A DNA stretch of 64,000 nucleotides from a virus (lineage: Duplodnaviria; Heunggongvirae; Uroviricota; Caudoviricetes), in IMG/VR virus record IMGVR_UViG_3300028888_000043, positions 9,756 to 73,755 of that record; one strand, 5' to 3'. The number at the start of each line of letters is the position of its first letter. Position 1 is the stretch's first letter. Below the pieces are notes generated by a model, which was given only the letters and a program-made list of their open reading frames with translations, searched no databases and was not told the DNA's origin. The position numbers and the translations under genes are program-made. Of this stretch, positions 1,561-49,195 are shown piece after piece.

Positions 1561-1603
1561 ATATTTTTGTTATTTTTATTATGGTTTTTAATATAAGTTA
1601 TTT

Positions 1604-5371: not shown

Positions 5372-5390
5372 CAATTTACATAAATAAATT

Positions 5391-9497: not shown

Positions 9498-10004
9498 ATG
9501 GGACTTCCACACAGACAATTATATGCCACCAATACAGGTGATGATAAAATCATCCTTACTTCCTGGATACCAGAGAAGAAGGATGATAGATATTATATGC
9601 CCGCCGGTACTCCACTTGGCGGTGACATCTGGGTGAACAACACAATAAACCTTAAAGAGGAAGAGGGAACCGTACCTGTCATGGTCGTAAGGTCAAAGAG
9701 AGTCACAGGTATCTGGATTGTATGTGAGAATGGTTACTTTGCTGCTGAACAATGGTTGTATAACTATAAACCAAGATGGGATGAAAACAAGTTCAGATTG
9801 GATTATGAATGGGCAGAAAAGCACATTGAAGGTGATGACATCTTTGGGATCCATATAATGACAGACATTGAAATGAAACATGGAGATGGTCCCTGGCCTG
9901 TCACTCTTGAAAGGGGAGAATACCCCAAGGAAGAAAAGAAAATACCATTCTGGAAGAAATTCGGTATGGTTCTTGGATTATGTAAGAAAAACAAACAGTT
10001 ATGA
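9498..10004 (+). CDS. hypothetical protein (168 aa)
   Basis: ORF; stop overlaps next start. Confidence 0.45.
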   Translation: MGLPHRQLYATNTGDDKIILTSWIPEKKDDRYYMPAGTPLGGDIWVNNTINLKEEEGTVPVMVVRSKRVTGIWIVCENGYFAAEQWLYNYKPRWDENKFRLDYEWAEKHIEGDDIFGIHIMTDIEMKHGDGPWPVTLERGEYPKEEKKIPFWKKFGMVLGLCKKNKQL

Positions 10005-26263: not shown

Positions 26264-26293
26264 GCTGTTATGTCCTTTTTAATATTTATGAAC

Positions 26294-30433: not shown

Positions 30434-30928
30434 ATGAAACCAATCAAGTTATCAATCAAGTCAGTAGTACTTATCATCTCTCTGACAATCAACATCTTCA
30501 GTGCATTCTATCTCAGGAATGCCAAGTCACCGGAGACCATCCAAGCAGAAGCGGAACTTCTTGCCCAGGCAGACACCCTTTCTGAGTGGGACATCTTCAC
30601 CCTTGCCCTGATGAAGGTGGAGTCAGAATATGACAACAGTGCAGTCTCATCTGTTGGTGCAAGAGGATACTTCCAGATGACTCCCATCTATGTCAAGGAG
30701 GTAAACCGAGTCCACAATACCAACTACACCTTTGACCAGGTGACTGACTTTGACACTGCCTATGAGATTTTCGACCTTATGCAGCAGGCCCACAATCCCA
30801 ATTACAATCTGGACAAGGCACTGGAACTCCATAATGGGAAGCATGCCTGGTACAACCGCCGGGTATATAAGGAGATGAAGAATATCCAGCAGTATGAAGA
30901 AATGAGAAACAAAGTTAAGAATATTTGA
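30434..30928 (+). CDS. lytic transglycosylase (SLT domain) with N-terminal signal/anchor; endolysin candidate
   Basis: ALMKVESEYDNSAVSSVGARGYFQMTP matches the SLT catalytic motif ES...S.AGA.GLMQ. Confidence 0.7.
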   Translation: MKPIKLSIKSVVLIISLTINIFSAFYLRNAKSPETIQAEAELLAQADTLSEWDIFTLALMKVESEYDNSAVSSVGARGYFQMTPIYVKEVNRVHNTNYTFDQVTDFDTAYEIFDLMQQAHNPNYNLDKALELHNGKHAWYNRRVYKEMKNIQQYEEMRNKVKNI

Positions 30929-31415: not shown

Positions 31416-32600
31416 ATGTTTGAATTAAGCAAAGGCAAAGTCATTGCCATTATCACCGGCATTTTCGTCATCATCGTCCTCGCCCTTATGGGAAGTGCAG
31501 CGGAGGATGTGAAGAACGAGCAGATTGTCATCAACCAGTACCCTTTCTCCGGAAAGATGGCATACTGGACCGAGCCAGGCATGCACTGGCAGGGATTCGG
31601 TCGCAAGACTGAGTACTACAAGACCCAGCAGTTCTGGTTTGGAGGTAAGGATGTGGACGGTGAGTCCCATGGTAACCCCATCAAGGTCATTTTCAATGAT
31701 GCTTCCGTCGGTTACATCTATGGATCCCTCCGAGTCATCCTCCCTACCGATACCGAGCACCTGAAACTCATCCAGACAGCATACACGGGTATGGACCGTC
31801 TTATGAATGACCTGGTTGCCCAGAATGTTGTGAAAGTCATCTATGCTTCCGGACCTCTGATGTCGGCATTTGAGTCCTATGCAGAGAAGAAGAATGATAT
31901 GGTGTTCTATATTACCGACCAGTTGACCTATGGTGTGTACAAGACCACAGTCCGTGAGGAGGATACTGTCGATTCCTTCACTGGTGAAGTCAAGAAGGTC
32001 AAGGTTGCGTCCCTGGTACAGAATGAAGATGCTCCTAATGGTTATGTGCGTTCAGAGAAGTCTCCTTTCTCCTCCTATGGTGTGATTATCGACCAGGTGT
32101 CCATCACTGAAATCACTTATGATGAGAAGGTAACCCAGCAGATCCAGACACAGCAGCAGGCCAATATGTCTATCCAGACCAAGAAGGCAGAGGCCCTTGC
32201 CGCCCAGCAGGATGCCATCAAGGCAGAGGCAGAAGGTAAGGCTGCTGCCGCCAAGGCCAAGTGGGAACAGGAGAAGGTGAAGGCAACCGAGGTGACCAAG
32301 GCTGAACAGGAACGGGAAGTTGCCCGCCTGGCAGCAGAGAAGGCAGAGTTTGACAAGAAGAAGATTATTGCCGAGGGTGAAGCGGAGGCGGCTGCCAACC
32401 GTGCGAAGGTCTCCGCTGGTCTGACTCCTCAGGAACGTGCAGAGTGGGAATACAAGACCAAGGTTGGTGTCGCTGACGCTCTTGCCAAGACCAACTGGCC
32501 GAAGATTGTGATGAGTGGAGGTAATGGAGGTGCATCCGGCGCACTGGATGTCATCACCCTGGAGAGGATGAATGCACTTGTCAAGAGTATGTCTGACTAA
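31416..32600 (+). CDS. SPFH/band-7 (HflK/C-, prohibitin-like) membrane protein
   Basis: N-terminal TM, central SPFH-like region, A/E/K-rich coiled coil at C-terminus; C-biased codon usage. Confidence 0.55.
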   Translation: MFELSKGKVIAIITGIFVIIVLALMGSAAEDVKNEQIVINQYPFSGKMAYWTEPGMHWQGFGRKTEYYKTQQFWFGGKDVDGESHGNPIKVIFNDASVGYIYGSLRVILPTDTEHLKLIQTAYTGMDRLMNDLVAQNVVKVIYASGPLMSAFESYAEKKNDMVFYITDQLTYGVYKTTVREEDTVDSFTGEVKKVKVASLVQNEDAPNGYVRSEKSPFSSYGVIIDQVSITEITYDEKVTQQIQTQQQANMSIQTKKAEALAAQQDAIKAEAEGKAAAAKAKWEQEKVKATEVTKAEQEREVARLAAEKAEFDKKKIIAEGEAEAAANRAKVSAGLTPQERAEWEYKTKVGVADALAKTNWPKIVMSGGNGGASGALDVITLERMNALVKSMSD

Positions 32601-32617: not shown

Positions 32618-32654
32618 ATGTGGCATGCAGGTTACTGTGTGCCACATTTTTTTA
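32618..32654 (+). terminator. Rho-independent terminator
   Basis: ATGTGGCA-loop-TGCCACAT then T7. Confidence 0.65.
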
Positions 32655-32690
32655 TGTATTGCCATAAATATTTTTATATAATTATAAGTT

Positions 32691-35072
32691 ATGGCAGATA
32701 CAATATCATATATAAAAATTGGAAATCAAACACATCCAATAGATGCAGTGACAGTCAATGGTATAACCATCTCACAACAAGAAAAGAACACATGGAATTC
32801 AAAACAAAATGCATTATCCTTTGACTCAATCCCTACAGAGAACTCTAACAACCTGGTGAAGTCAGGTGACCTCTACACTGTCATAGTTGACAATGAGGAG
32901 GTGACAGCAGCTGCTCTCAATGACCTCAATGACAGGATGATAAATGTGGAGAATGGTATGGTAACTGAAGAATATGACCCTGTATTCTCCTCATCTGCTG
33001 CTGCATCAATCACATCAGCCAACATCTCCAACTGGAACAGTAAGACCAGTAACACTGGTACCCTCACTGGTATCTCTATGAATGGGGTGAGTAAAGGTAC
33101 AAGCGGTAACATCAATCTTGGTACTGTCGTCACAGGTATAACTTTCAATGGTTCAAATGTATCTGTAAGTAAAGGTGTAGCAGCAATTAGTGTTTCTATC
33201 CCTGCCGCAGTGACATCAAATACAGTAGCAGGTTGGGGATTTACCAAAAATTCTGCACCTGGAACACTGACAACAACTGCAACTACATCTTTGTCAACTG
33301 CAACCAATGAGGCATTATCTGGGAACATCAGTCTCCACAAGATTGCCAAGACTGGTACTTATTCGGACCTGGTTGGAAAACCAGACCTACCAATGGCTGC
33401 TTACTTCAATCCTGCCAATGAGACTATGTATTTCTTCAAGTCAACAGCAGACAGGGATTCATTTGTGGCAAATAGAACACAAACAAGTCTGGTAATGTTT
33501 TCAACACAGATGTCACCATATATCAAGTTTAAAGACCCGAATGTTTTATCAGTCTTACTTACAAAAAACATAGGTGATGGTGTCGGAATAACTGAAACAC
33601 AGGCAGCCGCCGTTACAAGTATGAATAATGTTTTTGACGGCAATACAGGCATCAGTACCTTTGATGAGGGAGAGTATTTCACGGGATCTGACAGTTGGGC
33701 CAGTGCTTTCCGCAACTCAACTGTCACAAGGGTAAAACTTCCGATGGGTCTCCGCACAACCAATGCCTCTGGAGCATGGTCATATATGTTCTATGGATGT
33801 ACATCGTTGCAGGAGATTAATTTTGCTGATATGCAAAGAGGTACAGAGGCAGCACAGGCTGCACAATTCCAATGGTTTACTGGTTGCTCCACTCTTACAA
33901 CAATCAGTTTTGACAATATTGAGCAGATTTGTAAGTTTGTACCTACACGTTATCTTTTGTCAGATGTTCCATTTGGCTATAATACTAACACTCACCTTGT
34001 CAACTTGAATGGTCACGAACTCATAAATGTGGTTATTCCTTCAACCATTACTTCGATACGACCTTGCACCTTCTATCGTTTTAATAGGATTGTTTCTGTA
34101 ACAAACATAGCATCTGTGACAACAATAGGTCAATATGCATTCTACCAATGTACATCACTTACAACTGTTACAGAACCCACATCTTTAACAACAATAGAAC
34201 CATATACATTCAGTCAATGTACCAGTCTAAAATCAATATCCTTACCAGTGGCAACAACTATTGGTAACTGTGCATTCAATCAATGTACCAGTCTTTCTTG
34301 TGATTTGCCATTACCAGTGGCAACAACTATTGGAAAATATGCATTTTATCAGTGTCCTATTACAAATCTATCATTACCTGTTATTGAGACAATAGGTGAA
34401 TATGCATTTAGTGATTGTACTGAAATCACTTCCCTCACATTACCTTCAACAATAACAACAATAGGTAATGGTGCATTCAAGGGGTGTTCAAAATTAGTTA
34501 ATGTAACAATAAACAACAGTGTAAATTGTGGAAGAGATTGTTTTGTATCATCAGGAACAGGAGAAGGTACATTTACAATAAATGGTAATTATACAGAAAC
34601 TGTAGGAAGTTCATATAACAGACTTGGTTATTACAAACATTACAATATCACTGGGGATTTAAGTTCATGGACTACATATTGGACATTTGATTCAAAGTTT
34701 GAAACAATCAGAATAGGTGGTAATATAATTGGACAAAATACAACTGCATGTGTATTCAGAGATAGTAGTTATAGTCAAAAATTAAAATTTTTTGAATTGA
34801 TGGGAACATCCAACATCAATTTATGTTCTGCATTTCCACAATCAATTGAAAGTGGATTCATAGCTCACTTTGGATATAGTGATATTGCTATGACAGCAGC
34901 ACAAGCACATATATCTGATTCAAAGTTCTCAAAACTATATGTTGGTGATGGAACATCTGCTGCTGCCGATCAAGCAGTATTGAATAAATATCTTGCTGAT
35001 TCCACTTGGTCTCCATACTCATCAAAATTAGATCTCTGGTATAATTACACAGGTACATACAAAACCAGTTAA
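32691..35072 (+). CDS. tail fibre / receptor-binding protein with C-terminal BspA-type leucine-rich repeats
   Basis: N-terminal module shared with next gene; repeated xTxIGxxAFxxCxSLxxI(S/T)LP units near C-terminus. Confidence 0.6.
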   Translation: MADTISYIKIGNQTHPIDAVTVNGITISQQEKNTWNSKQNALSFDSIPTENSNNLVKSGDLYTVIVDNEEVTAAALNDLNDRMINVENGMVTEEYDPVFSSSAAASITSANISNWNSKTSNTGTLTGISMNGVSKGTSGNINLGTVVTGITFNGSNVSVSKGVAAISVSIPAAVTSNTVAGWGFTKNSAPGTLTTTATTSLSTATNEALSGNISLHKIAKTGTYSDLVGKPDLPMAAYFNPANETMYFFKSTADRDSFVANRTQTSLVMFSTQMSPYIKFKDPNVLSVLLTKNIGDGVGITETQAAAVTSMNNVFDGNTGISTFDEGEYFTGSDSWASAFRNSTVTRVKLPMGLRTTNASGAWSYMFYGCTSLQEINFADMQRGTEAAQAAQFQWFTGCSTLTTISFDNIEQICKFVPTRYLLSDVPFGYNTNTHLVNLNGHELINVVIPSTITSIRPCTFYRFNRIVSVTNIASVTTIGQYAFYQCTSLTTVTEPTSLTTIEPYTFSQCTSLKSISLPVATTIGNCAFNQCTSLSCDLPLPVATTIGKYAFYQCPITNLSLPVIETIGEYAFSDCTEITSLTLPSTITTIGNGAFKGCSKLVNVTINNSVNCGRDCFVSSGTGEGTFTINGNYTETVGSSYNRLGYYKHYNITGDLSSWTTYWTFDSKFETIRIGGNIIGQNTTACVFRDSSYSQKLKFFELMGTSNINLCSAFPQSIESGFIAHFGYSDIAMTAAQAHISDSKFSKLYVGDGTSAAADQAVLNKYLADSTWSPYSSKLDLWYNYTGTYKTS

Positions 35073-35077
35073 CTGAA

Positions 35078-35112
35078 AAAGACTCACCAACAAGTGAGTC
35101 TTTCTTTTATTT
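35078..35112 (+). terminator. Rho-independent terminator
   Basis: AAAGACTCAC-caacaa-GTGAGTCTTT then CTTTTATTT. Confidence 0.6.
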
Positions 35113-35163
35113 GTCATTCCCCATAAATACCTATATAGTATCAGAAAACTAATTCTAAACAAT

Positions 35164-37656
35164 ATGGCTGAATCAATTTCTTATATCAAAGTAGGTAACC
35201 AGGACCATCCAATTGATGCTGTAACCGTCAATGGTTTGACCCTTACATCACAAGAAAAAAGTTCTTGGAATGAAAAACAAGATGCTCTGACATTTGATTC
35301 AATACCAACAGAAAATTCAGATAACCCTGTCAAGTCTGGTGGAGTCTATGAGATGATAGTAGACAATGAGTATGTAATCTCTACTGCACTCAATGACCTC
35401 AATGACCGTCTGTTGGATGTTGAAGGTAATTCTCTCACAAGTGAAAGTGACCCGGTGTTTATGTCATCACCTGCATCAAGTATCACTGTTGCCAACATTT
35501 CTGCATGGAATGCCAAGCAGGATGCTCTCACTTTTGACTCACTTCCAACAGAGAACTCTGACAATATGGTGAAATCAGGTGCACTTTACACAGTCCTCAC
35601 AAATACTGAACTTGTTGTGGCAACTGCACTCAATGACCTCAACCAGAGGGTGAGTAGCAATCAAAGTTCCATTTCCAATTTATATGAGGAAATTGACAGG
35701 GCATTGACAGCAGTCCTTACTTACAAGGGTACAGTTGGTTCAAATGGTGATTACACATCTCTTCCTTCATCACATGAGGTTGGTGATGTCTATGTTGTTT
35801 CATCTGCCGGTACTTTTGCAGGTCAGTCTTGCGAGGTTGGTGATTACATCATCTGTAAGACCTCCCGTTCAACTGCATCTGACAATGACTGGAATGTTGT
35901 CAATGGTGAGAACCAGGTGTCCAACAGTGCTGCCACCTTGGCAGCAGCAGGTTCAAATGTGACCATAGCAACAGTGGATGGTACCAACATCACTATCTCC
36001 ACTCCTGCATCCTGGACTGGTGTGAGTAAGAATGGTACACTCACTGGTGTGACATTCAATGGTGTTTCTGCATCTGTAAGTAATGGTGTGGTATCAATCA
36101 GTCTCACCTATGACTCCATCCCTACTGAGAATTCAGACAATCTTGTCAAATCAGGTGACCTCTACACTGTCATAGTTGACAATGAGGAGGTGACAGCAGC
36201 CGCACTCAATGACCTCAATGACAGGATGATAAATGTGGAGAATGGTATGGTGAACTTCTCTGAACAAGACCCTATCTTCTCAAATTCAGCAGCAGCATCA
36301 ATCACCAATTCCAACATCTCATCCTGGAATGCCAAACAGGATGCACTCTCATTTGACTCTATTCCTACTGAAAACTCAACCAACCTTGTGAAGTCAGGTG
36401 ACCTCTATACTGTCATCACACAGAACGAATTCGTCGCGGCCGCAGCACTCAATGACCTGAATGACAGGGTGGAAGTACTTGAAGAAAACCAGTATAGTTT
36501 TGATTCACTCCCTACTGAAAATTCAGAGAACCTGGTGAACTCTGGTGCTCTTTATGGTGTCATAGTAAGTAATGAAAGGGTGGTTGCTACAGCACTCAAT
36601 GATGTCAATGACAGACTGATGGTATTGGAAAATAATATGAGTGATTCCTTTGAAGATGTCAACAGTGATGTGGCATCATTGGCAAGTACACTCCAAACAT
36701 CAGAAGAAGTGACAGCAGCAGCACTTAATGACCTGAACAGTAGAGTTACCACTCTTGAAAGTGGTTCAGGTAGTGGAACTGGTGGTGGTATCACAGGTGT
36801 CACCTTCAATGGTACAGCAGCATCCATCAGTAATGGTATTGCAAGTATAAGTGTAAGTATCCCAGCGGCTGTAACAGAAGCAACTGTATCAGGATGGGGA
36901 TTCACCAAGAATACAGGTACTCTCACTACACATGCCTCACATAAACTTACAGCAACAAACAGTACTGCAACCTCAATCAGCCAAGGTACAGAAATCACAT
37001 TCATAGAGTCTCTCACCGGTACTACAACAGCAACATCAGGAGACCTCACAGTGACTGCAACCAGAAAGAAAGTGACCATCCCTACCGCTGTCACAGAAGC
37101 AACTGTGTCTGGCTGGGGATTCACCAAGAATGCCGGTACACTCACAACACATGCATCACATAAACTTACAGCAACAAACAGTACAGCAACTTCTGTCAAC
37201 CAGGGAACTGAAATCACATTCATAGAGTCTCTTACTGGTACAACCACAGCAACATCAGGAAACCTTACAGTAACTGCAACCAGAAAGAAAGTTACAATTC
37301 CTACTGCTGTCACAGAAGCAACTGTCTCCGGTTGGGGATTCACCAAGAATACTGGTACATTGACAGGTATCTCTATGAATGGTGCCGCAGTTTCTGTATC
37401 CAATGGTGTTGCCAATCTTGGAACAGTCCTGACATCTCATCAGAGTATCAAGACCATCAACAGTCAGACAATGACAGGTTCAGGTAATGTTACAATCAGG
37501 GAGATTCCTGCCTGTACCAGTTCAGACAATGGAAAGATTCTCCAAGTGGTGAACGGATCCTGGACTCTTGTTACACCTGTTAGTATCTATAGTGGTAACG
37601 GTTCACCAAATAATAGTCAGGGAACTAATGGTGATTTATATATACAAACAAGTTAA
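35164..37656 (+). CDS. tail fibre-like protein with reiterated DS(I/L)PTENS..LNDLNDR units and a 219-nt tandem repeat
   Basis: N-terminus MAESISYIKVGNQDHPIDAVTVNG paralogous to upstream gene; at least 5 copies of an about 80-aa unit; 2.3 tandem copies of a 73-aa unit. Confidence 0.6.
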   Translation: MAESISYIKVGNQDHPIDAVTVNGLTLTSQEKSSWNEKQDALTFDSIPTENSDNPVKSGGVYEMIVDNEYVISTALNDLNDRLLDVEGNSLTSESDPVFMSSPASSITVANISAWNAKQDALTFDSLPTENSDNMVKSGALYTVLTNTELVVATALNDLNQRVSSNQSSISNLYEEIDRALTAVLTYKGTVGSNGDYTSLPSSHEVGDVYVVSSAGTFAGQSCEVGDYIICKTSRSTASDNDWNVVNGENQVSNSAATLAAAGSNVTIATVDGTNITISTPASWTGVSKNGTLTGVTFNGVSASVSNGVVSISLTYDSIPTENSDNLVKSGDLYTVIVDNEEVTAAALNDLNDRMINVENGMVNFSEQDPIFSNSAAASITNSNISSWNAKQDALSFDSIPTENSTNLVKSGDLYTVITQNEFVAAAALNDLNDRVEVLEENQYSFDSLPTENSENLVNSGALYGVIVSNERVVATALNDVNDRLMVLENNMSDSFEDVNSDVASLASTLQTSEEVTAAALNDLNSRVTTLESGSGSGTGGGITGVTFNGTAASISNGIASISVSIPAAVTEATVSGWGFTKNTGTLTTHASHKLTATNSTATSISQGTEITFIESLTGTTTATSGDLTVTATRKKVTIPTAVTEATVSGWGFTKNAGTLTTHASHKLTATNSTATSVNQGTEITFIESLTGTTTATSGNLTVTATRKKVTIPTAVTEATVSGWGFTKNTGTLTGISMNGAAVSVSNGVANLGTVLTSHQSIKTINSQTMTGSGNVTIREIPACTSSDNGKILQVVNGSWTLVTPVSIYSGNGSPNNSQGTNGDLYIQTS
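36868..37380 (+). repeat. 219-nt tandem repeat (about 2.3 copies, near-identical) inside fibre gene
   Basis: copies begin near 36868, 37087, 37306 (GCTGT[A/C]ACAGAAGCAACTGT...GGGGATTCACCAAGAAT). Confidence 0.75.
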
Positions 37657-37658
37657 TA

Positions 37659-38441
37659 ATGTCATCCATACTTTGTAAAGTAAATGATAGTTGGGTGCCT
37701 ACATCAAAATATTATAAAAAACAAAATGGAGAATGGGTGGAGATAAGTTATCAAGTATTTGAAAATTATGTTGAGACTTTATCTCCATTCATTTATCAAG
37801 GTCATACCCAATCCGAAACAGGTCCTGTAGTAGTCGATGAAACATATGACCCATCTAATCCTCCGGCACCAAATTCAGATGTCATCTATACCAACACTCC
37901 AGGTAGTCCAGAAGTGAAGACCAGTTCATCTGGAGAAGTCATTGAATACACATTCACAGATACATCCGGAAATACTACAAGTGATGTTGATACAGGCATA
38001 ATTGCCTTTGATAGCAACAACCCTGGCTGGACTCTTCATCTGGTCGTGGAAATGACACCAAATACAAACAACAACAAGAACATAATTGAAGCATATAACA
38101 CCACAAATAGGAGAGGACTGTATATATACACATCAGACAACTACCTGTACAAGAAAATACAGACAGCAAACTACAGCACCAACTCTTCATATGTAGCCTG
38201 GTCAAGGTTAAGTCCAACCGGTAAAGACTCAAATTACTATAAGACTTTGAACACCATCACATTTGATATAACATATACAAATGATAAGAAATTATCACTA
38301 TATGTAAACAATGTGGCACACTTTGAAAACTTCGATGTAGATGACACTACATTCCAAAATCTTACCATCAAAGTGGGTGTTGGAATGAGTGGATTTAATA
38401 TAAAAGAATTCACTGTTGTAAGAACAAATGTGAACACATAA
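37659..38441 (+). CDS. fibre-associated structural protein (260 aa)
   Basis: N-terminus KVNDSWVPTSKYYKKQNGEWVEI shares a motif with the C-termini of the next two genes. Confidence 0.5.
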   Translation: MSSILCKVNDSWVPTSKYYKKQNGEWVEISYQVFENYVETLSPFIYQGHTQSETGPVVVDETYDPSNPPAPNSDVIYTNTPGSPEVKTSSSGEVIEYTFTDTSGNTTSDVDTGIIAFDSNNPGWTLHLVVEMTPNTNNNKNIIEAYNTTNRRGLYIYTSDNYLYKKIQTANYSTNSSYVAWSRLSPTGKDSNYYKTLNTITFDITYTNDKKLSLYVNNVAHFENFDVDDTTFQNLTIKVGVGMSGFNIKEFTVVRTNVNT

Positions 38442-38467
38442 ATAATTATATTATAAGTGATTAACCA

Positions 38468-40852
38468 ATGAGCAGACCTGTAAACATATCAGATACTCTG
38501 ACATTCAATCCTACCGGTTATACTGGTGCATACAATATGTCATTGTCCAATCCGACCAATGGATATCATGGTTCAGATTGGACATCAAATTATGCAACAA
38601 TAACTTTAAGTAGTACAACATCTGGATATGTATATTTCACATTTACAATTTCTGATATACCTTCAAATGCAACAATTACAAGTGTAACTTGTTCTGTAAG
38701 AGAACGTGCAAATCAGAGTAACCGTGTATCCAATGCATCAATACAATTATATAGCAATACAACTGCAAAGGGTAGTGCTACAACAACATCATTATCCACA
38801 AATGCCACAGTTTATAATATCACAAATGCAGGAACATGGACAGTATCAGAATTAAGTAACATAAGGTTAAGGATTAATGGTCGAAAAGCAAATACCCAAA
38901 ATTCAGGAAATATTCGTTTCTATGGTGCAACTCTCTCAATAACCTATTCCATCCAGGGGACTGAATATGAAATCATCTCCACACTCAGTACTGATGATGT
39001 GGACTCCATTGATCCTGCCGGACTCACATATGTAATGGGTGGTGATGGTTATGAACTGAATATTTATACAGACAGCCTGGATGATATAAATGTATTGGAC
39101 AATGATGTGGATGTGACAAGTCAACTTGTACTTACTCATTCAACAGGAGAGTCATCCACAGACACTTTCATCCCAACATCATATGATTCCAACAACTCAT
39201 CATATGACAGTATCTATGAAGGTTCACCCACAAATGGTCTTACTGCTCACACAGATTCAAACAGAATATGTGCTTATGTCACACAGACCGCCTATGCAGA
39301 GGCAAGACTCACTTACAATTTTGACTGTTCTTCAATCCCACAAAATGCAATAATCAGTAGTGTGACCTGTATTGCTAATGCCGCTTGTTTCAGTAATGGA
39401 CAATATTTTGACACCAAGACACTACAACTATATTCAGGAAGTACTGCAAAGGGTTCAGCAGTAACAATAACTGGAACAGGAAATACAAGTACAAGTCATA
39501 ACATTAATGGAGGGTCCTGGACCAGGGCTGAACTTGACAATGCCAAAATTGTTGTTTATATACAAAGAGGAAACGACACAACACAGGCATCCTTCTCATT
39601 CTGGGGAGCAACATTGTCCGTTACTTACAGTCTACCTGCTGATGACTATTATGTCTACACTCTTTCCAATGTCAGTGCAGACCATACCATCATCATAGCA
39701 AATGCCATCATAGAAATCCCAGAGGAGGATCCCCAGTATGACTACTACCCGATAACCATATCCAGTATCAATGCTTCCACCACGCCTGGTCGTGGTACGG
39801 TTCGCATCGTAGAAGGAACAAACCAAACAATCACCATCTACCCGGATGACCCGCAACTCACACTGGCGACAGACAATGGAACAGACATCTCCAACCAGTT
39901 GGTCCAGCATGGTGGCACAATACCTGACCCGACAGTTGCGACTGCGACCGGCGCATCATATGGATTCACACTGAACAGTTCAACAGGATATTATACATCT
40001 ACAAACAATGGTGTGAATTCATCAGCTGCTGTCTGCCATGTGACTTTCAATTTACCAGTGAGATGCCTTGTCACCATCAATTACATCAACTATGCAGAGG
40101 CAACTTATGATTTTGGTGTATTTGGAAACATTGATACTGCATTGAATACAAACAACTATGCTGCCGGTTCAAATGGTGCGACCATAACAGATACAAATTA
40201 CAAACTTGCTTGTAACACGTCTTCATACAATACAGCATCAGTACAAACCATTACATATGAGATTCCTTCTGGACAACATTACATAGACATCAAGTATTCA
40301 AAAGATGATGCAACTGCTTCAAACAATGACTCCCTCCAGTGGAAGATCGCATCCATAGAACCCCTGGAGAACAACAACTATTACACATACACACTGTCAA
40401 ACATTCAGGAATCACATTCCCTGATATTTGTCTTTGGTAATATCTCCTACTACTTTGTGAACTCTTCCAGTTCAGGTGCCAAGCTCTATCCGAATGGATC
40501 AATGGTCCATCTCCAGGGTGACTCCTACCGCCTGACAATAGTGCCTGATGACTACACATACAATGTCAGTGTGACAGACAACAATGTCAATGTCTCCTCC
40601 CAGGTGCAGAGAAAGGAAGAGCAGGTGACAAAGGAAGGGAACACCTACACTGTGGTGAACTTCATATACACTCTAAACAACATCCAGGCAACCCACAACA
40701 TAGTGGTCATCTGCACCGCAAGTGAGTCACTTCACCTGAAAGTGAACAACAGTTGGGTGAGGGTGTCAAAAATCTACAAGAAAATCAACAATGTCTGGAC
40801 AGAGGTCACCCTGGATTCACTCACAGAACCAAGCATTTACATAAAAAAATAG
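38468..40852 (+). CDS. large fibre/structural protein (794 aa), S/T/N-rich
   Basis: paralogous segments with 40902 gene; C-terminal KVNNSWVRVSKIYKKINNVWTEV. Confidence 0.55.
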   Translation: MSRPVNISDTLTFNPTGYTGAYNMSLSNPTNGYHGSDWTSNYATITLSSTTSGYVYFTFTISDIPSNATITSVTCSVRERANQSNRVSNASIQLYSNTTAKGSATTTSLSTNATVYNITNAGTWTVSELSNIRLRINGRKANTQNSGNIRFYGATLSITYSIQGTEYEIISTLSTDDVDSIDPAGLTYVMGGDGYELNIYTDSLDDINVLDNDVDVTSQLVLTHSTGESSTDTFIPTSYDSNNSSYDSIYEGSPTNGLTAHTDSNRICAYVTQTAYAEARLTYNFDCSSIPQNAIISSVTCIANAACFSNGQYFDTKTLQLYSGSTAKGSAVTITGTGNTSTSHNINGGSWTRAELDNAKIVVYIQRGNDTTQASFSFWGATLSVTYSLPADDYYVYTLSNVSADHTIIIANAIIEIPEEDPQYDYYPITISSINASTTPGRGTVRIVEGTNQTITIYPDDPQLTLATDNGTDISNQLVQHGGTIPDPTVATATGASYGFTLNSSTGYYTSTNNGVNSSAAVCHVTFNLPVRCLVTINYINYAEATYDFGVFGNIDTALNTNNYAAGSNGATITDTNYKLACNTSSYNTASVQTITYEIPSGQHYIDIKYSKDDATASNNDSLQWKIASIEPLENNNYYTYTLSNIQESHSLIFVFGNISYYFVNSSSSGAKLYPNGSMVHLQGDSYRLTIVPDDYTYNVSVTDNNVNVSSQVQRKEEQVTKEGNTYTVVNFIYTLNNIQATHNIVVICTASESLHLKVNNSWVRVSKIYKKINNVWTEVTLDSLTEPSIYIKK

Positions 40853-40880
40853 AGAGCCTTTTAACTCTCTATTTTTTTTT
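40850..40880 (+). terminator. Rho-independent terminator
   Basis: TAGAGAG-ccttttaa-CTCTCTA then T9. Confidence 0.7.
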
Positions 40881-40901
40881 GAAATTATCCATAAATAATT
40901 T

Positions 40902-42788
40902 ATGAGTCAAAGAGTAATAGATACAACACAAACAGTAACATTCGTACCGGTATCCAGGGACAGAGAAAATAGTAATTTCTATTCCTGGACTATCGGTGGT
41001 GGATCTGGACCATTCCGCGCGGCCGATGCAAGTTCTACTACCAATTATGACACTCTACAATATGTGAGGACAACCGGCGCAGATTCTTATTTTTATTATG
41101 ACTTCAATGTCACCGGAATTCCATCATCGAATGTACTTATAAATTACATAGGCGGTAGGGTACAAATCCGTGTCGCCAATACATCATCATCATACTTTCA
41201 GGTAAAAGAAGTATATTTCACCAACCAGCTACAGAAGCTGACAAGTTCCGGTAACATAAATTCAGCATTGGCACAGAACATAGTCACCATCCCGTCTTAT
41301 GATGATTCCGGCTTGGAGGATTTGGATTTGAATGACATCAAACTGTGTGTCCATCTCGTAAAAGGAACTTCAAACAACAACTCATCAGCATATATCTATG
41401 GCGCAAACCTGGACATCAATTACTCCACATATCATTATGAGTATGACATCACTGTTCTGAACAATACTGACAAAGTGTCAGTGACAGGTGACTCATATAC
41501 TTTATCAGAAGGACAGTCGCAGACAATCTCGTTCGTAATCGCCAATCTCAATGCCATCGCTATCGAGGACAATTTCCAGGACATCAAATCACAACTGGTC
41601 AACACAACCGGGAACACATATACTTATACCATCTCGAATATAGATGATGATCACATCATCACCTGTGAAGACCGGGCGATAGACATCAGTGATGAGGATC
41701 CCAATTATGATTACCACACATTGTCCATTTCAGGAATAAACATCAGTACCGTGCCGGCATTCGGGTCACACAGATATGTGGATGGCAGTAATGTGGTCAT
41801 CAATCTCAATCCTGATGAACCAAATTTGAAACTGGCATTGGACAATGGTGTAGACATCTCAAACGATTTGGTCATCACATCATCATACACCTACACATAT
41901 ACAACATCCAATGTCTCTGGTACTACTTCCTGGACAAACAACAATGGTGTATATTCAAATGGAAATGCTGGAAACAACAGTACAAGATCAACAATACAGT
42001 TCAACTTCAATACGAGCATTCCCTGTCTGGTGACTTTCTATTACTGGGGCGCACTGACCGGAAACGATGCCATCTGCTTTGGAAATCTCAATCAGACCCT
42101 GACAACGGATGGCACACAGGATTCAGCATCAATAAGAAAACATTGGAAGGGCGGCACATTCACATATGCTGAAGCGGATGCATTTGCAGTAAGTTACGAG
42201 AATGTTGAAGGATCCAATTTCGTCCAGGTGAAGGTGAGAAGAAACAACAACACAAGCGGAGCAAGTTACCACACTGCATATGTGAGAGTGGAAATCACCC
42301 CGATGGTACCCGAGACATATCAGTATACTATCTCAAATATGGACACCGATCATTCGCTGGTGTTCGTCTTCGGTGATGTGGTTTATTACACTGTCCAGGA
42401 AACGACATCCCTCACCGGATTAACCGTCTTCCCGACAGGATCCTGGGTGGTACTTCCTGATGATTCATACAAACTGACAGTGATACCGGACAATTCCCTC
42501 ATCCAGTTGGAAGTGGAGGACAACGGAACCACACAGCAGATGGAAAGAGTCGAGTATGTGAATGATAATGATGATGTTATCATCAATTATGTGTATAAAT
42601 TGTTTAACATAAATGAGAATCACATCATCAATATCGTGGAGAAAACACCGGATGTGAAATTATATATGAAGATAAATGGTATATTCACAGAGGTATCGCA
42701 AGTATATAAGAAGATAAATGGAGAATGGATGCCACAGGAAGATATCCTGAATCTGTTCGGGTCAAATGTTGTTTATATAAGCAAGTAA
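40902..42788 (+). CDS. large fibre/structural protein (628 aa), paralog of 38468
   Basis: shared blocks (YTYTLSNI..H.L.FVFG..YY.V......L...P.GS.V.L..DSY.LT..PD); C-terminal KINGIFTEVSQVYKKINGEWMP. Confidence 0.55.
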   Translation: MSQRVIDTTQTVTFVPVSRDRENSNFYSWTIGGGSGPFRAADASSTTNYDTLQYVRTTGADSYFYYDFNVTGIPSSNVLINYIGGRVQIRVANTSSSYFQVKEVYFTNQLQKLTSSGNINSALAQNIVTIPSYDDSGLEDLDLNDIKLCVHLVKGTSNNNSSAYIYGANLDINYSTYHYEYDITVLNNTDKVSVTGDSYTLSEGQSQTISFVIANLNAIAIEDNFQDIKSQLVNTTGNTYTYTISNIDDDHIITCEDRAIDISDEDPNYDYHTLSISGINISTVPAFGSHRYVDGSNVVINLNPDEPNLKLALDNGVDISNDLVITSSYTYTYTTSNVSGTTSWTNNNGVYSNGNAGNNSTRSTIQFNFNTSIPCLVTFYYWGALTGNDAICFGNLNQTLTTDGTQDSASIRKHWKGGTFTYAEADAFAVSYENVEGSNFVQVKVRRNNNTSGASYHTAYVRVEITPMVPETYQYTISNMDTDHSLVFVFGDVVYYTVQETTSLTGLTVFPTGSWVVLPDDSYKLTVIPDNSLIQLEVEDNGTTQQMERVEYVNDNDDVIINYVYKLFNINENHIINIVEKTPDVKLYMKINGIFTEVSQVYKKINGEWMPQEDILNLFGSNVVYISK

Positions 42789-42793
42789 AACCA

Positions 42794-42848
42794 CTGCGAT
42801 TGCGATATGCGAATTGGTCCGTCCATCTGGGCGGATCAATTTTTTTTG
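42794..42848 (+). terminator. TGCGA repeat (CTGCGATTGCGATATGCGAA) plus terminator hairpin plus T8
   Basis: TTGGTCCGTCC-atct-GGGCGGATCAA (2 G-U pairs) then T8 then GTAAAAAAGTG. Confidence 0.7.
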
Positions 42849-42926: not shown

Positions 42927-43691
42927 ATGAAAAAGTCCGACATCATCGACGCCCACAATGCCCTCCTCAACAAGCTCAAGACCGTCCTTGCAGAGTACAA
43001 GGCACTCACAGGTCTGGACTATCCCAAGGCAGACTACCTCATCTCCCAGCTTGGTCCCTACACGATGAACTGGGGCAAGGAATCCCTCCAGAATCGCCTC
43101 AATGAGCGTCAGAATGCCATCATCACCATCCCCCAGGAGGCTGACATCTATGTCAAGACCGAAGAGATGAAGTCCTCCGAGGAAGGTCAAGCTTTCATCG
43201 CCTCCCTGGAGAAGTGCCAGACTGACATCTTGGCAGAGATTCACAATCTCTCCAAGGATTTTGTCGCCAAGTTCAATGAGATGCTTGCCATCTGTGGTCT
43301 CAAGGACTGGGAGATTGTCACCTATAAGAACCTCGAGAAGAACGCCCTCCCCCATATCCTTCCTTCTTTCGGCAAAGAGTTCTTTGACATCGTGAAGAAG
43401 GACATGATGTATGCCAGAGTCCATATCCACATCGGTTGTGACCATGGTGAATGGAAGATGAGTGTGGCTGCCGGTATCAACGGAGGAACTGTCCTCGGCG
43501 AGAATGGCGAAGAGTATCAGCAGTTCAAGGCATACATCACCATCTGCGACCATGCCAAGGCCTTCCAGATTTGGATGAACAACACCTATAATAAGATGGC
43601 CGAACAGATGAAGTCCCTCCTGGCTGCCCTTGACAAGGCTGACGAGGCAGTCCGTGACCCATACGCTGCCTGGATTGCATCAAAGAACTAA
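42927..43691 (+). CDS. hypothetical protein (254 aa), C-biased codon usage
   Basis: ORF after promoter; antisense ORF 42762-43553 rejected. Confidence 0.5.
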   Translation: MKKSDIIDAHNALLNKLKTVLAEYKALTGLDYPKADYLISQLGPYTMNWGKESLQNRLNERQNAIITIPQEADIYVKTEEMKSSEEGQAFIASLEKCQTDILAEIHNLSKDFVAKFNEMLAICGLKDWEIVTYKNLEKNALPHILPSFGKEFFDIVKKDMMYARVHIHIGCDHGEWKMSVAAGINGGTVLGENGEEYQQFKAYITICDHAKAFQIWMNNTYNKMAEQMKSLLAALDKADEAVRDPYAAWIASKN

Positions 43692-43763
43692 AAAAGTCAA
43701 GATTCTTTGAAACTTTTTCCAGGATTACAGGTATTATATAGTGAACCTTTAGAAGACACAGAC

Positions 43764-44588
43764 ATGATTAACTACACCAACATCACAGAGAACATCAACA
43801 TCTATTTCCGTGAAATCCGCAAGTTCCAGAACATGACCAAGGAAGATGAGGATATCCTTTTCTTCCGGGTGTCTCAGGGAGACAACTCTGCCGTCACTGA
43901 AATCTTCAACAAGATGGCGAAGCTCGCAGTCGCAACTGCAAAGACCTATACATCCGACCCAGACCTCCTTCAGGATCTCATCCAGGAGGCAAACTGCGGA
44001 ATCCTGGAGGCCATCCGGAAGTTCAACCCTTCAATGGGCTTCCGCTTCTCCTCCTATGCCCGCTGGTGGATGAAGGCGAACATCTCCAAGTTCCTTAATG
44101 AGAGCATGACTGTCCATCCTTCCAATGGGAGACTGATAATCATCGCCAAGAGAATCCGCCAGGAGTTCTTCAAGGAGAACCAGAGGGAAATCACCGAGTG
44201 TGAACTGATGGATCTCCTGGAAGAGAGAGGAGAGGTAGTCACTGACATCACCGCCATTTTGTCAGTCACTGTCGACAGTATTGACAAAGTGTCAGGTGAC
44301 GATGACAGCACCTTTGAGCAGTCCAAACTGTTCAACTCCAGGTCCGCCATCGACAATGACTATCTGTGTGTGGAGGAGAATGAGAGTCTCTCCGATGACA
44401 TTGATGGTCTGCTGAACAGACTCACCATCCGTGAAAGGACTATGGTGAAGATGAAGTTCGGTATCGGCTTTTCCGAGATGGAATATCCCGACATCGCCAA
44501 GAAGTGGGCAAGGATGACCGGTGAGAAGGTGATGAGTGCGGAGAGAGTCCGTCAGATCGTGGTAGGCGCTCTCAAAAAAATGAAGTAA
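43764..44588 (+). CDS. sigma-70 family RNA polymerase sigma factor (regions 2-4)
   Basis: DLIQEANCGILEAIRKFNPSMGFRFSSYARWWMKANI (region 2.1-2.4); LTIRERTMVKMKFGIG...SAERVRQIVVGALKKM (region 4.2); ATG start (track start 43707 is TTG). Confidence 0.75.
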   Translation: MINYTNITENINIYFREIRKFQNMTKEDEDILFFRVSQGDNSAVTEIFNKMAKLAVATAKTYTSDPDLLQDLIQEANCGILEAIRKFNPSMGFRFSSYARWWMKANISKFLNESMTVHPSNGRLIIIAKRIRQEFFKENQREITECELMDLLEERGEVVTDITAILSVTVDSIDKVSGDDDSTFEQSKLFNSRSAIDNDYLCVEENESLSDDIDGLLNRLTIRERTMVKMKFGIGFSEMEYPDIAKKWARMTGEKVMSAERVRQIVVGALKKMK

Positions 44589-47691: not shown

Positions 47692-47718
47692 GCGATTATG
47701 CGATTGCGGCCAGAATTT
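47692..47718 (+). repeat. TGCGA tandem-repeat element (CTGCGATTATGCGATTGCGG)
   Basis: same element family as 29545, 42794, 49152, 61516, 63034. Confidence 0.6.
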
Positions 47719-49195
47719 CATCTGTAATTGCATAAATCTTTTTCTTATATGAACTCCAACCAGCAGCGGCCTTATAAGCATCCACAGATTCTGCTGGAAC
47801 ATAGTAGCCACTCACCATATACCATTGAGAACCATTTCCAGTCGCTTCCCTTGTAGGAGGAGTAGTTGCAAGACATACCACCTTGAGACCATTTGCAGCA
47901 TACTGACCTGATCTATCACCGATATATGTCAAAGTAGAAGGGAAGACAATGTACTGACAGACCTCATTGTTCTTGTCATACCAGGGACAGACCTGTGTGT
48001 ATGCACCATTGTCCATCTTTGCCATAAAATCCCTGAACGATCCGGCCATCAGTTTGGTGACACCTTCCGCTATCTTGACTACATTCTGCTTTGACAGACC
48101 ATAATCAGCACCGCCATAACAGATAGTTCCATCCTTGGAGTAGACAATGTTGTTGACTGCTTTGAAGTTTGGATTGTTTTCATCTATGGTGATGGTCTCA
48201 AGCATATCCCAGAAGACGTCATTGTATTGACCGGTATAATCTGCGCCATTACCCAGTGTCTGAAGTCTTTCACCAATGTGTATCTCTCTCGGTGAAAATT
48301 GATTTGAAAACACTTCTTCACCAAACAACATCAATCTTGGAAGGTTCAATATCTCCTGGAATTTACCTGGATATGTATCATAGATATTGGAAAATGCGCC
48401 GTGACCTATATATGTAAGAGTATCCGGGAGTAATTGAGTACCTCCTGGAATACCTGATGTCTGGGCATATCCTATACTTGAACCAGCAAAAGCATAATTC
48501 TGGATAACATTCAATCCCTGGTTCATATTCACATGGGACAATTCACCACAGAAGGCGAACGCCTGTACGCTCACCTGCTTCAGTGTGGACGGGAAGGTAA
48601 TCTCCTTCAGTTTGCTGTTCCTGAAACAGTAGTTTCCGATTATCATCATACTTGGAGGAAGAGTTATACTCTCAAGGTCATATGCACCGAAGAATCCACC
48701 CTGCTTGGCTGCCTGTTCTTCATATGTGGTGTCTGTGAAAGTGGTCTTCGTGACATTCACAAAGAACTGGAACTCATCAAAATGCTTCAGGTTGGCAAAA
48801 GTGAGAGACCTGTAACCTCCAGGTGTGGATGAATCCGACACAAGTATGTTGGCTGCATTGAATGAATCATTTGTAACAGCAATCGCCTGGTCAATGGTCA
48901 TGAATGTGTCTGTCTGTCCCACCCAACCGGCATTCCTGGCGATTTCCATCGCTTCCGGGTTGGACTGGTTGGTCATTATCTTCCTGTAGAAGATTTTCTT
49001 CTTCCATTTTTCTGTGTCTGTCGTCTTCAATGTACACAAAGTAGGATAGTTCACCGGGTTTTCCGAGACATCTTGGATGTATTCATCCACTGTATTGTAT
49101 TCTTTTAAATACTTCATAACATAATAGTCCTTTATATTATTTATGACCTTTCTGCGAATCTGCGACTGCGATATGCGATAGACTGAAATCCACAT
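47696..49195 (-). CDS. BspA-type leucine-rich-repeat protein (499 aa), minus strand
   Basis: repeated I(G/Q)NYAF..C..L..I.(L/F)P units (ITLPPSMMIIGNYCFRNSKLKEITFPSTLKQV...); both ORF ends lie inside TGCGA-repeat elements. Confidence 0.55.
   Translation of the reverse strand: MWISVYRISQSQIRRKVINNIKDYYVMKYLKEYNTVDEYIQDVSENPVNYPTLCTLKTTDTEKWKKKIFYRKIMTNQSNPEAMEIARNAGWVGQTDTFMTIDQAIAVTNDSFNAANILVSDSSTPGGYRSLTFANLKHFDEFQFFVNVTKTTFTDTTYEEQAAKQGGFFGAYDLESITLPPSMMIIGNYCFRNSKLKEITFPSTLKQVSVQAFAFCGELSHVNMNQGLNVIQNYAFAGSSIGYAQTSGIPGGTQLLPDTLTYIGHGAFSNIYDTYPGKFQEILNLPRLMLFGEEVFSNQFSPREIHIGERLQTLGNGADYTGQYNDVFWDMLETITIDENNPNFKAVNNIVYSKDGTICYGGADYGLSKQNVVKIAEGVTKLMAGSFRDFMAKMDNGAYTQVCPWYDKNNEVCQYIVFPSTLTYIGDRSGQYAANGLKVVCLATTPPTREATGNGSQWYMVSGYYVPAESVDAYKAAAGWSSYKKKIYAITDEILAAIA

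Follow-up and report, generated by a model that had tools for sequence, protein, structure and literature searches.

The Probable Fibre Cassette and Its Genes

The stretch of DNA described here, referred to as the window, comprises 64,000 nucleotides (nt) of a virus of the Caudoviricetes (IMG/VR record IMGVR_UViG_3300028888_000043, positions 9,756 to 73,755). Its source contig from a Joint Genome Institute (JGI) metagenome, Ga0310697_10000001, has a length of 410,934 bp, so that the window lies in a megaphage-sized genome; the bearer is a ~411-kb rumen megaphage. Five consecutive genes of the window, designated g1 to g5, are the subject of the present analysis, together with two short elements encoded by them, namely a peptide at the extreme C-terminus of g2, termed the tail motif, and the β-hairpins carried by g3, g4, and g5. 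The open reading frames (ORFs) are the following, with lengths in amino acids (aa).

32691-35072, plus strand: g1, ORF of 793 aa, fibre-like
35164-37656, plus strand: g2, ORF of 830 aa, fibre-like shaft protein
37659-38441, plus strand: g3, ORF of 260 aa
38468-40852, plus strand: g4, ORF of 794 aa
40902-42788, plus strand: g5, ORF of 628 aa

An earlier note, made from the sequence alone, had described these ORFs as a five-gene fibre module, and all five were found on the plus strand where it had placed them. The term fibre is apt for g1 and g2; it does not suit g3, g4, and g5, which are modelled by AlphaFold2 (AF2) as globular, lectin-like proteins of the β-sandwich type.

Architecture of the Fibre-Like Proteins g1 and g2

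Identity between the N-termini of g1 and g2 amounts to 67% in the first 110 aa and to 54% over 171 aa, in agreement with the common module of about 110 aa that had been noticed in them. This N-terminal anchor is unrelated to the fibre N-terminus of T4-like relatives. In g1, the anchor is followed by one DSIPTENS...ALNDLN unit, a block of leucine-rich repeats (LRRs), and a C-terminal domain of 150 aa; g1 is devoid of the tail motif. In g2, five complete DS(I/L)PTENS units and a partial one come after the anchor, together with a knob segment and tandem repeats of 73 aa. A recognizable head domain was not found in g2, and its sequence gave no match in Pfam, PHROGs, or NCBIfam.

34017-34610, plus strand: BspA-type LRR block of g1, about aa 440-640, Pfam LRR_5 (PF13306)
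32818-32962, plus strand: g1 copy of a near-identical 145-nt block, 92% identity to the g2 copy
36107-36251, plus strand: g2 copy of the 145-nt block, 92% identity to the g1 copy
35291, 35531, 36107, 36350, and 36497: the five DS(I/L)PTENS...ALNDLN units of g2
36703-36737: partial DS(I/L)PTENS copy of g2
36859-37358: tandem repeats of g2, 73-aa unit

LRR_5 matches g1 in three stretches with 149.6 bits (gathering cutoff 27.7; E 5.3e-44), and the solved LRR proteins 4fs7, 4gt6, and 6mlx (TpLRR) of the PDB are matched with E values of about 1e-34 to 1e-16. The statement that g1 ends in BspA-type LRRs is therefore right as to the family (E 5e-44) and wrong as to the position, since the protein continues for ~150 residues beyond the block.

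The DS(I/L)PTENS unit occurs once in g1 and five times in g2, as reported before, with the partial copy of g2 to be added. The unit is presumably comparable to the 'AATPxAVK' repeat; Pfam Phage_fiber_2 gave nothing with the DSIPTENS unit of g1 and g2 at E<=0.1. While other copies of the unit are 66-69% identical at the DNA level, the 145-nt block reaches 92%, which bears out the near-identical segment previously regarded as a recombination substrate. The block would probably represent a gene-conversion tract, because its right-hand ~100 nt contain only two differences and identity falls abruptly at 32962/36251. Origin of the repeats of g1 and g2 from collapsed or duplicated reads is unlikely and was rejected, because the repeat copies are diverged and in frame and because the exact g3 protein is present on three contigs of separate JGI and European Nucleotide Archive (ENA) assemblies, the longest of which measure 410,934 and 411,604 bp (ENA).

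The tandem repeats at 36859-37358 comprise about 2.3 copies of a 219-nt (73-aa) unit, IP.AVTEATVSGWGFTKN.GTLT..., with 85-87% identity; the start of this unit, IPAAVT..GWGFTKN, is also found in g1 (33198-33259).

Tail and Hairpin Motifs in the Window

The C-terminus of g2 reads ...IYSGNGSPNNSQGTNGDLYIQTS and ends at the stop codon. The corresponding features of the cassette are listed below.

37579-37653, plus strand: tail motif of g2, VSIYSGNGSPNNSQGTNGDLYIQTS, plus stop codon; proposed socket half of a split repeat
37671-37745, plus strand: two N-terminal β-hairpins of g3, aa 5-29, predicted by AF2
40727-40810, plus strand: two C-terminal hairpins of g4, about aa 754-781, from the motif (AF2 hairpins at aa 756-780)
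42669-42728, plus strand: two C-terminal hairpins of g5, from the motif match

g2 is the only ORF of the window with an end of the type G..[GN]D[IVL][YWF][ILFV].{1,6}$, and the window, translated in six frames, shows the double-hairpin motif in three places and no more, namely at the N-terminus of g3 and at the C-termini of g4 and g5. The occurrence of one motif at the start of g3 and at the ends of g4 and g5 had already been recognized; its wording as YKKING(E/V)W needs correction for g4, where YKKINNVW is found. The proposed docking pair was defined as an ORF ending in Y.G..P....G..GD.Y.[QK], not more than six residues from the stop, directly followed by an ORF with at least one Y.K.[NS]G.W hairpin; in the window, such a tail is that of g2, and the hairpins follow in g3, g4, and g5.

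The ATG of g3 lies 2 nt past the g2 stop. A fusion of g2 and g3 by frameshift or readthrough was considered, with g3 being in the -1 frame and preceded by nine open codons, but it was rejected in view of the missing slippery heptamer. Such a fusion would not unite tail and hairpin in any case, because the hairpins are mostly found at the far C-terminus of the downstream protein.

Pairing of Tail and Hairpins in Other Phages

The pairing was followed in 79 IMG/VR loci with g4-family genes which, together with several contigs obtained by exact protein look-up, make up a sample of 83 loci with 1,679 ORFs. Members of the g4 family almost always end in the tandem hairpins IY.KVNGSW....KVYKKVNGSWVEQ...NY.K, and the gene just upstream, encoding 70 to 1,063 aa, ends in ...YYTGSSAPSSSLG.NGDIYLQ. 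before its stop codon. The tail motif forms the end of 58 of the 1,679 ORFs and is essentially never internal; the next gene encodes a hairpin motif or a g4-family protein in 58/58. Forty-five of the tail-motif ORFs are located directly upstream of a full g4-like gene; the distance between the two is -1 to 62 nt, in most cases 21 nt or less. The remaining 13 are followed by g4-like genes broken by in-frame stops or by shorter proteins, and most of the shorter proteins with readable C-termini have hairpins.

The first sample had been picked by g4, and for this reason a second one was picked by the tail motif alone. The motif was at the extreme C-terminal end in 21 of these 23 loci. The next gene had hairpins in 17 of the 21, was a fragmented g4-like gene in three, and was nothing recognizable in one locus. 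Among the 17 hairpin genes, the hairpins are N-terminal in five (with the near-identical L094 and L095 counted separately), internal in one, and C-terminal in the others. Overall, the pairing is kept in more than 60 other phage loci, the hairpin module being attached to unrelated effector domains and the tail to shafts of 70 to 1,063 aa.

Covariation of the two elements lends modest support to the pairing. Among 31 non-redundant pairs, the distances of tail and hairpin are correlated with r 0.35, compared with 0.19 and 0.20 for each of them versus the g4 core; the partial r is 0.32 (permutation p about 0.01). The suggestion of the earlier note that the hairpin motif is a docking peptide shared by different fibre subunits finds strong comparative support insofar as the hairpin is coupled to a C-terminal partner motif of the preceding fibre gene and both form a contiguous repeat elsewhere (see below). 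Its target has to be revised; most likely this is the g2 tail and not fibre subunits in general.

Two further observations were made in these loci. In L008, L010, L019/L024, L036, L041, L049, L101, and L114, g4-like and neighbouring genes are split by in-frame stops under genetic code 11 with homology still recognizable, which suggests stop-codon reassignment in those rumen phages. In L064, L065, L068, L073, L077, and L084, the gene before a short (~430-aa) g4-like gene ends in (P)xVSQDS(T/S)TK(V/I)L(S/T)IS, and four of these six loci have hairpins at closer spacing (KVNG.W.E..V[YW][KR]KV.GSWQ); the SQDSTTK-type terminal motif may be a second type of socket.

Close Relatives, Mini-Adaptors, and the Contiguous Form

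Close relatives differ in cassette content and agree in the order of tail and hairpin. In L092, g4 is 90% identical and g5 is missing. L090 has a g4 of 74% identity, and its synteny is preserved from YodL to the sigma factor. It contains, in this order, an LRR fibre of the g1 type, a tail-bearing fibre of the g2 type, a g4 paralog of 538 aa in the place of g3, g4, a protein of 89 aa, and a protein of 553 aa. The 89-aa protein consists of the N-terminal anchor of g1 and g2 (TISYIEVNGVQHPIDAMTV) fused to the tail (..GKDGDIFIQIETEA, then stop) and of nothing else; 3 nt downstream of it, the 553-aa protein starts with hairpins. In L085, the order is a tail-bearing fibre, a g3-like gene, and a g4-like protein with internal hairpins.

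Proteins of this kind, limited to an N-terminal anchor and the tail, are termed mini-adaptors; those encoded by close relatives measure 70-116 aa. Tail-motif proteins of 70-125 aa are encoded at 16 other loci, and in 10 of the 16 the N-terminal ~45 aa are common to a neighbouring ORF. The shared N-terminal module first seen in the window is thus a general design, with the anchor differing by phage group.

The C-terminal ~50 aa of g2 match fibres of related megaphages (L004, 920 aa; L085, 736 aa; L090, 781 aa). The fibres of the T4-like relatives at L004 (7217-9979) and L085 (7685-9895) possess HxH motifs (RGNH(S/T)HS), repeated ETDPTVPAWAKE..KPSYT segments, and a g2-type tail at the end, and ETDPTVPAWAK repeats plus HxH motifs are fibre-type features of tail-motif proteins in related megaphages. 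The N-terminus of the L004/L085 fibres (LDYGEIAINF..SIKND..EI) bears a loose resemblance to that of T4 fibritin. L091, also a related megaphage contig, carries at 811-2052 an IS605 OrfB/TnpB-like gene (OrfB_IS605, Cas12f1-like_TNB) a few kb upstream of its fibre cassette.

Tail and hairpin are found contiguously in one chain in proteins of Erwinia phage pEp_SNUABM_01 and Streptomyces phage phiBT1 which are annotated as tail fibre (e.g., WYNGSGAPASATGANGDFYLDTTALDVYKKVSNAWSV). The split form is present in Ochrobactrum phage ZX86, where a 'minor tail protein' ends in ...YYQGTAAPNNSVGANGDIYLRFA at its stop codon and the next structural gene starts with MPIHIKGTNWGG..LHLKQDGVYREVDEAYTKVNGVWRLF; the PHROGs families of these cultured-phage proteins are tail-fibre and minor-tail. 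The split pair appears to be widespread in rumen phages and present in at least one alphaproteobacterial phage. Virtual fusions of split pairs were colinear with the natural contiguous units upon alignment and, as judged from the sequences, tail and hairpin are the two halves of one repeat.

Predicted Folds of g3, g4, and g5

The AF2 model of g3 (predicted local distance difference test, pLDDT, 81.7) consists of the two N-terminal hairpins, a short helix, a low-confidence linker, and a concanavalin A (ConA)-like jelly roll at aa ~57-255. In Foldseek searches of the PDB, the latter is matched by the lectin-like subdomain of botulinum neurotoxin Hc, PL7 alginate lyases, and NEL (E 1.5e-6 to 1e-5, probability 1.0), with 218 matches at E<=1e-3 for g3. 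At the level of the predicted fold, the C-terminal domain of g3 is a concanavalin-A-like jelly roll; Pfam Laminin_G gave no match with g3. The g3 family is narrow, with 36 homologs. N-terminal hairpins are kept in all 28 homologs that were aligned, and W12, K21, and W26 of these hairpins are invariant among them.

g4 (pLDDT 87.5) is modelled as an all-β chain of jelly-roll and immunoglobulin (Ig)-like domains with two hairpins at the end. Its domains are two copies of a jelly-roll N-domain, which is internally duplicated, Ig-like spacers, a carbohydrate-binding-module (CBM)-like domain at aa ~489-632, and the C-terminal hairpins. The nearest solved folds are reelin repeats, carbohydrate-binding domains of BcsB, Bacteroides SGBP-B, and CBM-bearing glycosidases, with TM-scores that are low because the model is multidomain; the nearest viral models (BFVD) are tail proteins, receptor-binding proteins (RBPs), evolved Dit, and F5/8-type-C proteins. 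The paralogy of g4 and g5 asserted in the earlier note was confirmed by BLASTP (aa 229-794 of g4 versus aa 9-628 of g5; 28% identity over 640 aa, E 5e-73), g5 having a single N-domain plus two C-terminal hairpins.

The g4 family extends to more than 1,149 metagenome homologs and, by profile search, to 2,193 clusters at 50% identity, and none of the homologs has a Pfam domain or an informative source name. Pfam, PHROGs, and NCBIfam gave no meaningful match for g3, g4, g5, and the mini-adaptor, and neither the tail nor the hairpins are represented by a model in these libraries or by a solved structure. PDB sequence and profile searches with g2, g4, the contiguous unit, tail plus hairpin (A4), and hairpins (A6) returned nothing significant. 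Within the family, conservation is highest in the CBM-like domain of g4 (...PVRCLVTI.YINYAE.TYDFG.FG.ID...), where numerous residues are invariant in 31-56 sequences, and it exceeds what would be expected of a host-range determinant; the domain could be enzymatic or bind a conserved ligand.

The predicted folds, that is, LRR, ConA-like, and CBM-like/Ig-like chains akin to phage tail proteins and RBPs, would suit adhesion. In the classic chaperone arrangement, too, the gene that immediately follows the fibre gene codes for a protein that binds the tip of the fibre. For the Pam3 tail fibre, chaperone-assisted assembly is described (PMC9608196). That g3, g4, and g5 act as chaperones of fibre assembly or bind the tip only transiently, in the manner of Tfa, Mu U, T4 gp38, or Pam3 gp25, and are no stable parts of the virion, is nevertheless distinctly improbable. 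Proteins of 260 to 1,200 aa with lectin-like, CBM-like, and Ig-like domains are adhesin-like, as many as three of them, each different, come after one fibre, and no match to tail-fibre assembly proteins was obtained in Pfam or PHROGs. For the mini-adaptors, moreover, there would be nothing to be assembled.

The hairpins of g3 and g4 are folded by AF2 on their own, as a four-stranded meander. This behaviour without a partner, together with the foldon-like pattern AP..G..Y.[RKQ]..G.W and a weak, sub-threshold match of a triple-hairpin peptide to Pfam Collagen_trimer (E 0.0013), would be expected if the hairpins were self-contained, foldon-like homotrimerization tags. The tail would then be the fibre's own tag, the genes would be adjacent merely by clustering of fibre genes, and the motifs would never touch each other. 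Left unexplained would be the strict order and near-zero spacing of tail gene and hairpin gene, the anchor-plus-tail proteins of 70-125 aa, the N-terminal, C-terminal, or internal hairpins on monomer-like globular proteins, and the single-chain fibres in which tail and hairpin are the halves of a repeat. Separate tags of this kind are therefore considered improbable.

Promoter- and Terminator-Like Sites

The octamer CATAAATA is present in 10 copies in the window versus 2.85 expected, a number that was reached by none of 100 shuffles. Four of the 10 copies lie 4-34 nt upstream of start codons of the cassette.

32663-32670, plus strand: promoter-like octamer CATAAATA upstream of g1
35122-35129, plus strand: octamer before g2
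38437-38444, plus strand: octamer before g4
40890-40897, plus strand: octamer before g5
1599-1606 (minus strand), 5379-5386, 26283-26290 (minus strand), 46928, 49138-49145 (minus strand), and 59818: other octamer sites
~32620-32652: terminator-like hairpin with T-run, before g1
35078-35103, plus strand: terminator-like hairpin after g1
~40851-40880: terminator-like hairpin with T-run, after g4
42811-42842: terminator-like hairpin with T-run, after g5

CATAAATA bears a likeness to the T4 late promoter TATAAATA, and the octamer may be a late-type promoter of this phage group. Terminator-like sites are no more numerous in the region than expected by chance, so that only their placement at gene ends is suggestive. 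From the octamer sites and these gene-end hairpins, separately promoted, co-regulated units are suggested. The octamer stands mostly shortly upstream of start codons, including those of all transcription units of the cassette and of a second LRR gene of the window, described below.

Genome Context and Location on the Virion

The genes adjoining the cassette and a second LRR gene are as follows.

30434-30928: SLT-domain transglycosylase, upstream flank of the cassette
31416-32600: SPFH/Band-7 protein, upstream flank
42927-43691: weak match to the Arn DNA-mimic domain (E 0.0013, below cutoff), downstream flank
43707-44588: sigma-70-like factor with regions 2 and 4, downstream flank
47696-49195, minus strand: second BspA-type LRR_5 protein (E 2.5e-22)

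The flanks are kept in the relatives L090 and L092. The second LRR_5 protein lacks the N-terminal anchor of g1 and g2; translation of it probably begins at the second Met (MKYLKEY..., about nt 49117), which an octamer site precedes by a short distance. Outside the cassette the window is non-structural; in addition to Dam methylase, SLT transglycosylase, SPFH protein, and sigma-70-like factor, it encodes M42 aminopeptidase, Dda/PIF1-like helicase, thymidine kinase, R2K ATP-grasp, RlaP, and Thg1. No tRNA was found in the 64-kb window and no similarity to GenBank phages at the DNA level; tblastn with g1, g2, and g4 yielded only short, domain-level matches in unannotated faecal contigs. A prophage-based host search in 185,579 species genomes gave four matches, all of which are ruminant metagenome-assembled genome (MAG) bins of Clostridia, Lachnospiraceae, or Firmicutes.

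The position among non-structural genes, and the frequency of BspA-type LRR and lectin-like folds in bacterial surface proteins, would be in accordance with secreted or cell-surface adhesins made during infection, which are not part of the virion. The shared N-terminal anchors and the coiled-coil-like shaft repeats speak for virion fibres, as do the occurrence of the tail motif at the end of related-megaphage proteins with the HxH and ETDPTVPAWAK features and the linkage of the pair to tail genes in other phages; an obvious signal peptide was not seen on reading the N-termini by eye, no predictor having been run. A non-virion role is accordingly rated as highly improbable.

The site on the virion is a separate matter. 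In the T4-like relatives (L002-L005, L007, and L029), the fibre and g4-like genes are situated between the gene of a gp23-type major capsid protein and those of TerL/gp13/portal. This raises the alternative that g2-type fibres are neck whiskers or collar fibres, similar to T4 fibritin, or head fibres, decorated by g3, g4, and g5 through the same docking and serving environmental adhesion instead of primary receptor binding. For T4 Hoc, which is a chain of β-sandwich domains, environmental adhesion has been proposed, and g4, a beads-on-a-string β-sandwich chain in the AF2 model, is Hoc-like in this respect. Moreover, tail plus hairpin is weakly foldon-like: with the two motif profiles, the T4 foldon reaches 8.2 bits (A4) and 6.5 bits (A6), values far below database significance that were attained by 0/500 composition-matched shuffles. 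In smaller phages, on the other hand, the neighbours of the pair are Dit plus a tail-type protein of 1,994 aa, or else genes for endolysin, portal, or terminase, the contiguous repeat is found in proteins annotated as tail fibre or minor tail, and the anchor of g1 and g2 is not that of the fibres of the T4-like relatives. With no match to Pfam Fibritin_C, Hoc, or head-fibre families above threshold either, a neck or head location is regarded as unlikely.

In the T4-like relatives L002-L005 and L029, the fibre/g4-like genes are followed directly, on the other strand and between head genes and terminase, by a Tad2-like gene (Pfam PF11195, by name an anti-Thoeris family), and in L004/L005 by a Dam methylase gene as well.

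Proposed Mode of Assembly

The five genes would be transcribed from their own late-promoter-like CATAAATA sites. The paralogous fibres g1 and g2 would use their common N-terminal anchor for what is presumably the same attachment site on the virion, followed by a shaft built of the DS(I/L)PTENS...ALNDLN unit. g1 would carry its own binding head in the form of the BspA-type LRR block and g2 would be headless. The 25-residue tail peptide of g2 (IYSG..P....G..GDLYIQTS) would open a fibre repeat of ~40 residues, and g3, g4, and g5 would supply its other half in trans, in the form of one or two Y.K.NG.W β-hairpins. The hairpins would dock on the g2 tail by β-strand complementation; one shaft could therefore show several separately encoded, exchangeable receptor-binding heads.

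That g1 to g5 form a fibre/adhesin cassette, with g1 and g2 as anchored virion fibres and g3, g4, and g5 docking in trans on the g2 tail, is judged to be slightly on the probable side, and none of the alternatives accounts for the mini-adaptors and the strict gene order as well as docking does. The sequences, the paralogy, the predicted folds, the near-obligate adjacency of tail and hairpin genes, the single-chain form, and the mini-adaptors are observations; contact, trimeric state, stoichiometry, site on the virion, and receptor binding are deduced from them. A more far-reaching proposal is offered tentatively and with less assurance. Here, tail plus Y.K.NG.W hairpins would be a split foldon-like repeat, serving as a portable plug and socket; a trimeric shaft with three tails would receive up to three different lectin-like heads (g3, g4, and g5), and host range would be re-tooled by swapping of head genes or by adaptors of 70-125 aa.

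Several points weigh against the proposed mode of assembly. The cassette is surrounded in the window by non-structural genes (Dam methylase, SLT, SPFH, sigma factor, helicase, thymidine kinase) and, in view of these neighbours and of the head-gene neighbours in the T4-like relatives, a location on the tail is uncertain; the tail-fibre annotations of the cultured phages are themselves based on homology. Ten of the 65 full g4-like genes are without a recognizable upstream tail-motif gene, and six more follow the different C-terminal motif SQDSTTK(V/I)L(S/T)IS. The covariation signal, modest as it is, is confounded by linkage and shared ancestry. The hairpins, folding alone in the AF2 models, have no obvious need of a partner, and docking leaves unexplained why the hairpin proteins per tail protein number one, two, or three.

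If docking is true, a sequence rule would become available by which shafts are paired with heads in uncultured phages, namely a C-terminal GD.Y.Q tail followed by a Y.K.NG.W gene; the host-range genes of such phages are otherwise unannotated. A role would likewise be assigned to a large unannotated family of about 2,200 clusters at 50% identity, which lacks a model in Pfam, PHROGs, and NCBIfam as well as a solved structure. The peptide pair of ~25 residues each would be an attractive handle for the engineering of phages or display scaffolds with exchangeable binding domains, and a heteromeric split relative of the foldon tag would be of interest to structural biologists.

Comparison with Known Systems

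Among phage proteins, tip adhesins encoded by genes of their own are already known, as are modular fibres that have anchors in common. The split two-part motif, its portability over unrelated shafts and heads, and the g4 family are absent from the libraries and literature searched; neither the motif strings nor a described docking motif was found in the literature searches.

The foldon of T4 fibritin is known as a homotrimerization unit and not as a heteromeric dock. The hairpin YKKQNGEWVEIS may be likened to the foldon YVRKDGEWVLLS and the tail to its AP.DG lead-in. Both would have in common a short β-hairpin, AP...G..Y.(R/K/Q)..(D/N)G.W, at the end of a coiled-coil fibre, with identical spacing from Y to W (YKKQNGEW here versus YVRKDGEW in the foldon), and foldon-like AP.DG..Y.RKDG.W segments are found in gp60 and gp61 of Cellulophaga phage phi17:1 and in a tail fibre of Escherichia phage Schickermooser. 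In contrast to the foldon, the element described here is split over two polypeptides, has an extra GD.Y.Q strand, and usually comprises two tandem hairpins. Pfam Fibritin_C did not match g2 to g5 or the motif peptides, even at E up to 10, and the PDB profile searches with A4 and A6 had no foldon-tagged chain among their matches, though many such chains exist; for these reasons the likeness is not significant at the database level. It is thus best described, from the sequences compared, as a weak likeness and not as membership. With T4 Hoc-type decoration there is no sequence match, and a g4-like gene follows gp23 in the six T4-like loci, not in the window.

Fibres with a separate tip adhesin or chaperone are represented by gp37-gp38 of T2, T6, and S16, S-U of Mu, H-G of P2, Stf-Tfa of lambda, and gp24-gp25 of Pam3; the T2-type tip protein stays attached as adhesin. 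As in the cassette, the gene is located directly downstream of that of the fibre; the product of these systems binds the C-terminal tip of the fibre, as would be the case for g3, g4, and g5. Unlike the known tip proteins, the partners here are much larger, lectin-like multidomain proteins, with one to three of them per fibre, and the interface would be a two-part linear motif on unrelated shafts and heads. The Tfa, Caudo_TAP, and gp38 families gave no match with g3, g4, and g5 in Pfam, PHROGs, and NCBIfam.

Branched systems with multiple RBPs, such as the tailspikes of CBA120, gp63.1/gp66 of G7C, phi92, and PhiKp24, make use of N-terminal docking domains. In these systems, several RBPs per virion are attached via conserved adaptors and sister proteins have common N-terminal anchors, and the cassette would resemble them in both respects. 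Their docking domains are globular T4gp10-like or XD domains at the N-termini of the RBPs, whereas the joint proposed here would consist of a C-terminal peptide of ~25 aa and hairpins of ~25 aa, the latter at either end of the partner. For PhiKp24, an unusually complex tail-fibre arrangement is described (PMC9700779).

The LRR block of g1 differs from BspA-type LRR surface proteins in being placed on a phage fibre-type anchor and shaft. Finally, the cohesin-dockerin pair of cellulosomes, with no relation in sequence or fold, offers an analogy of logic, in that a small, portable docking module brings varied domains onto a scaffold; cohesin-dockerin systems are prominent in rumen organisms.

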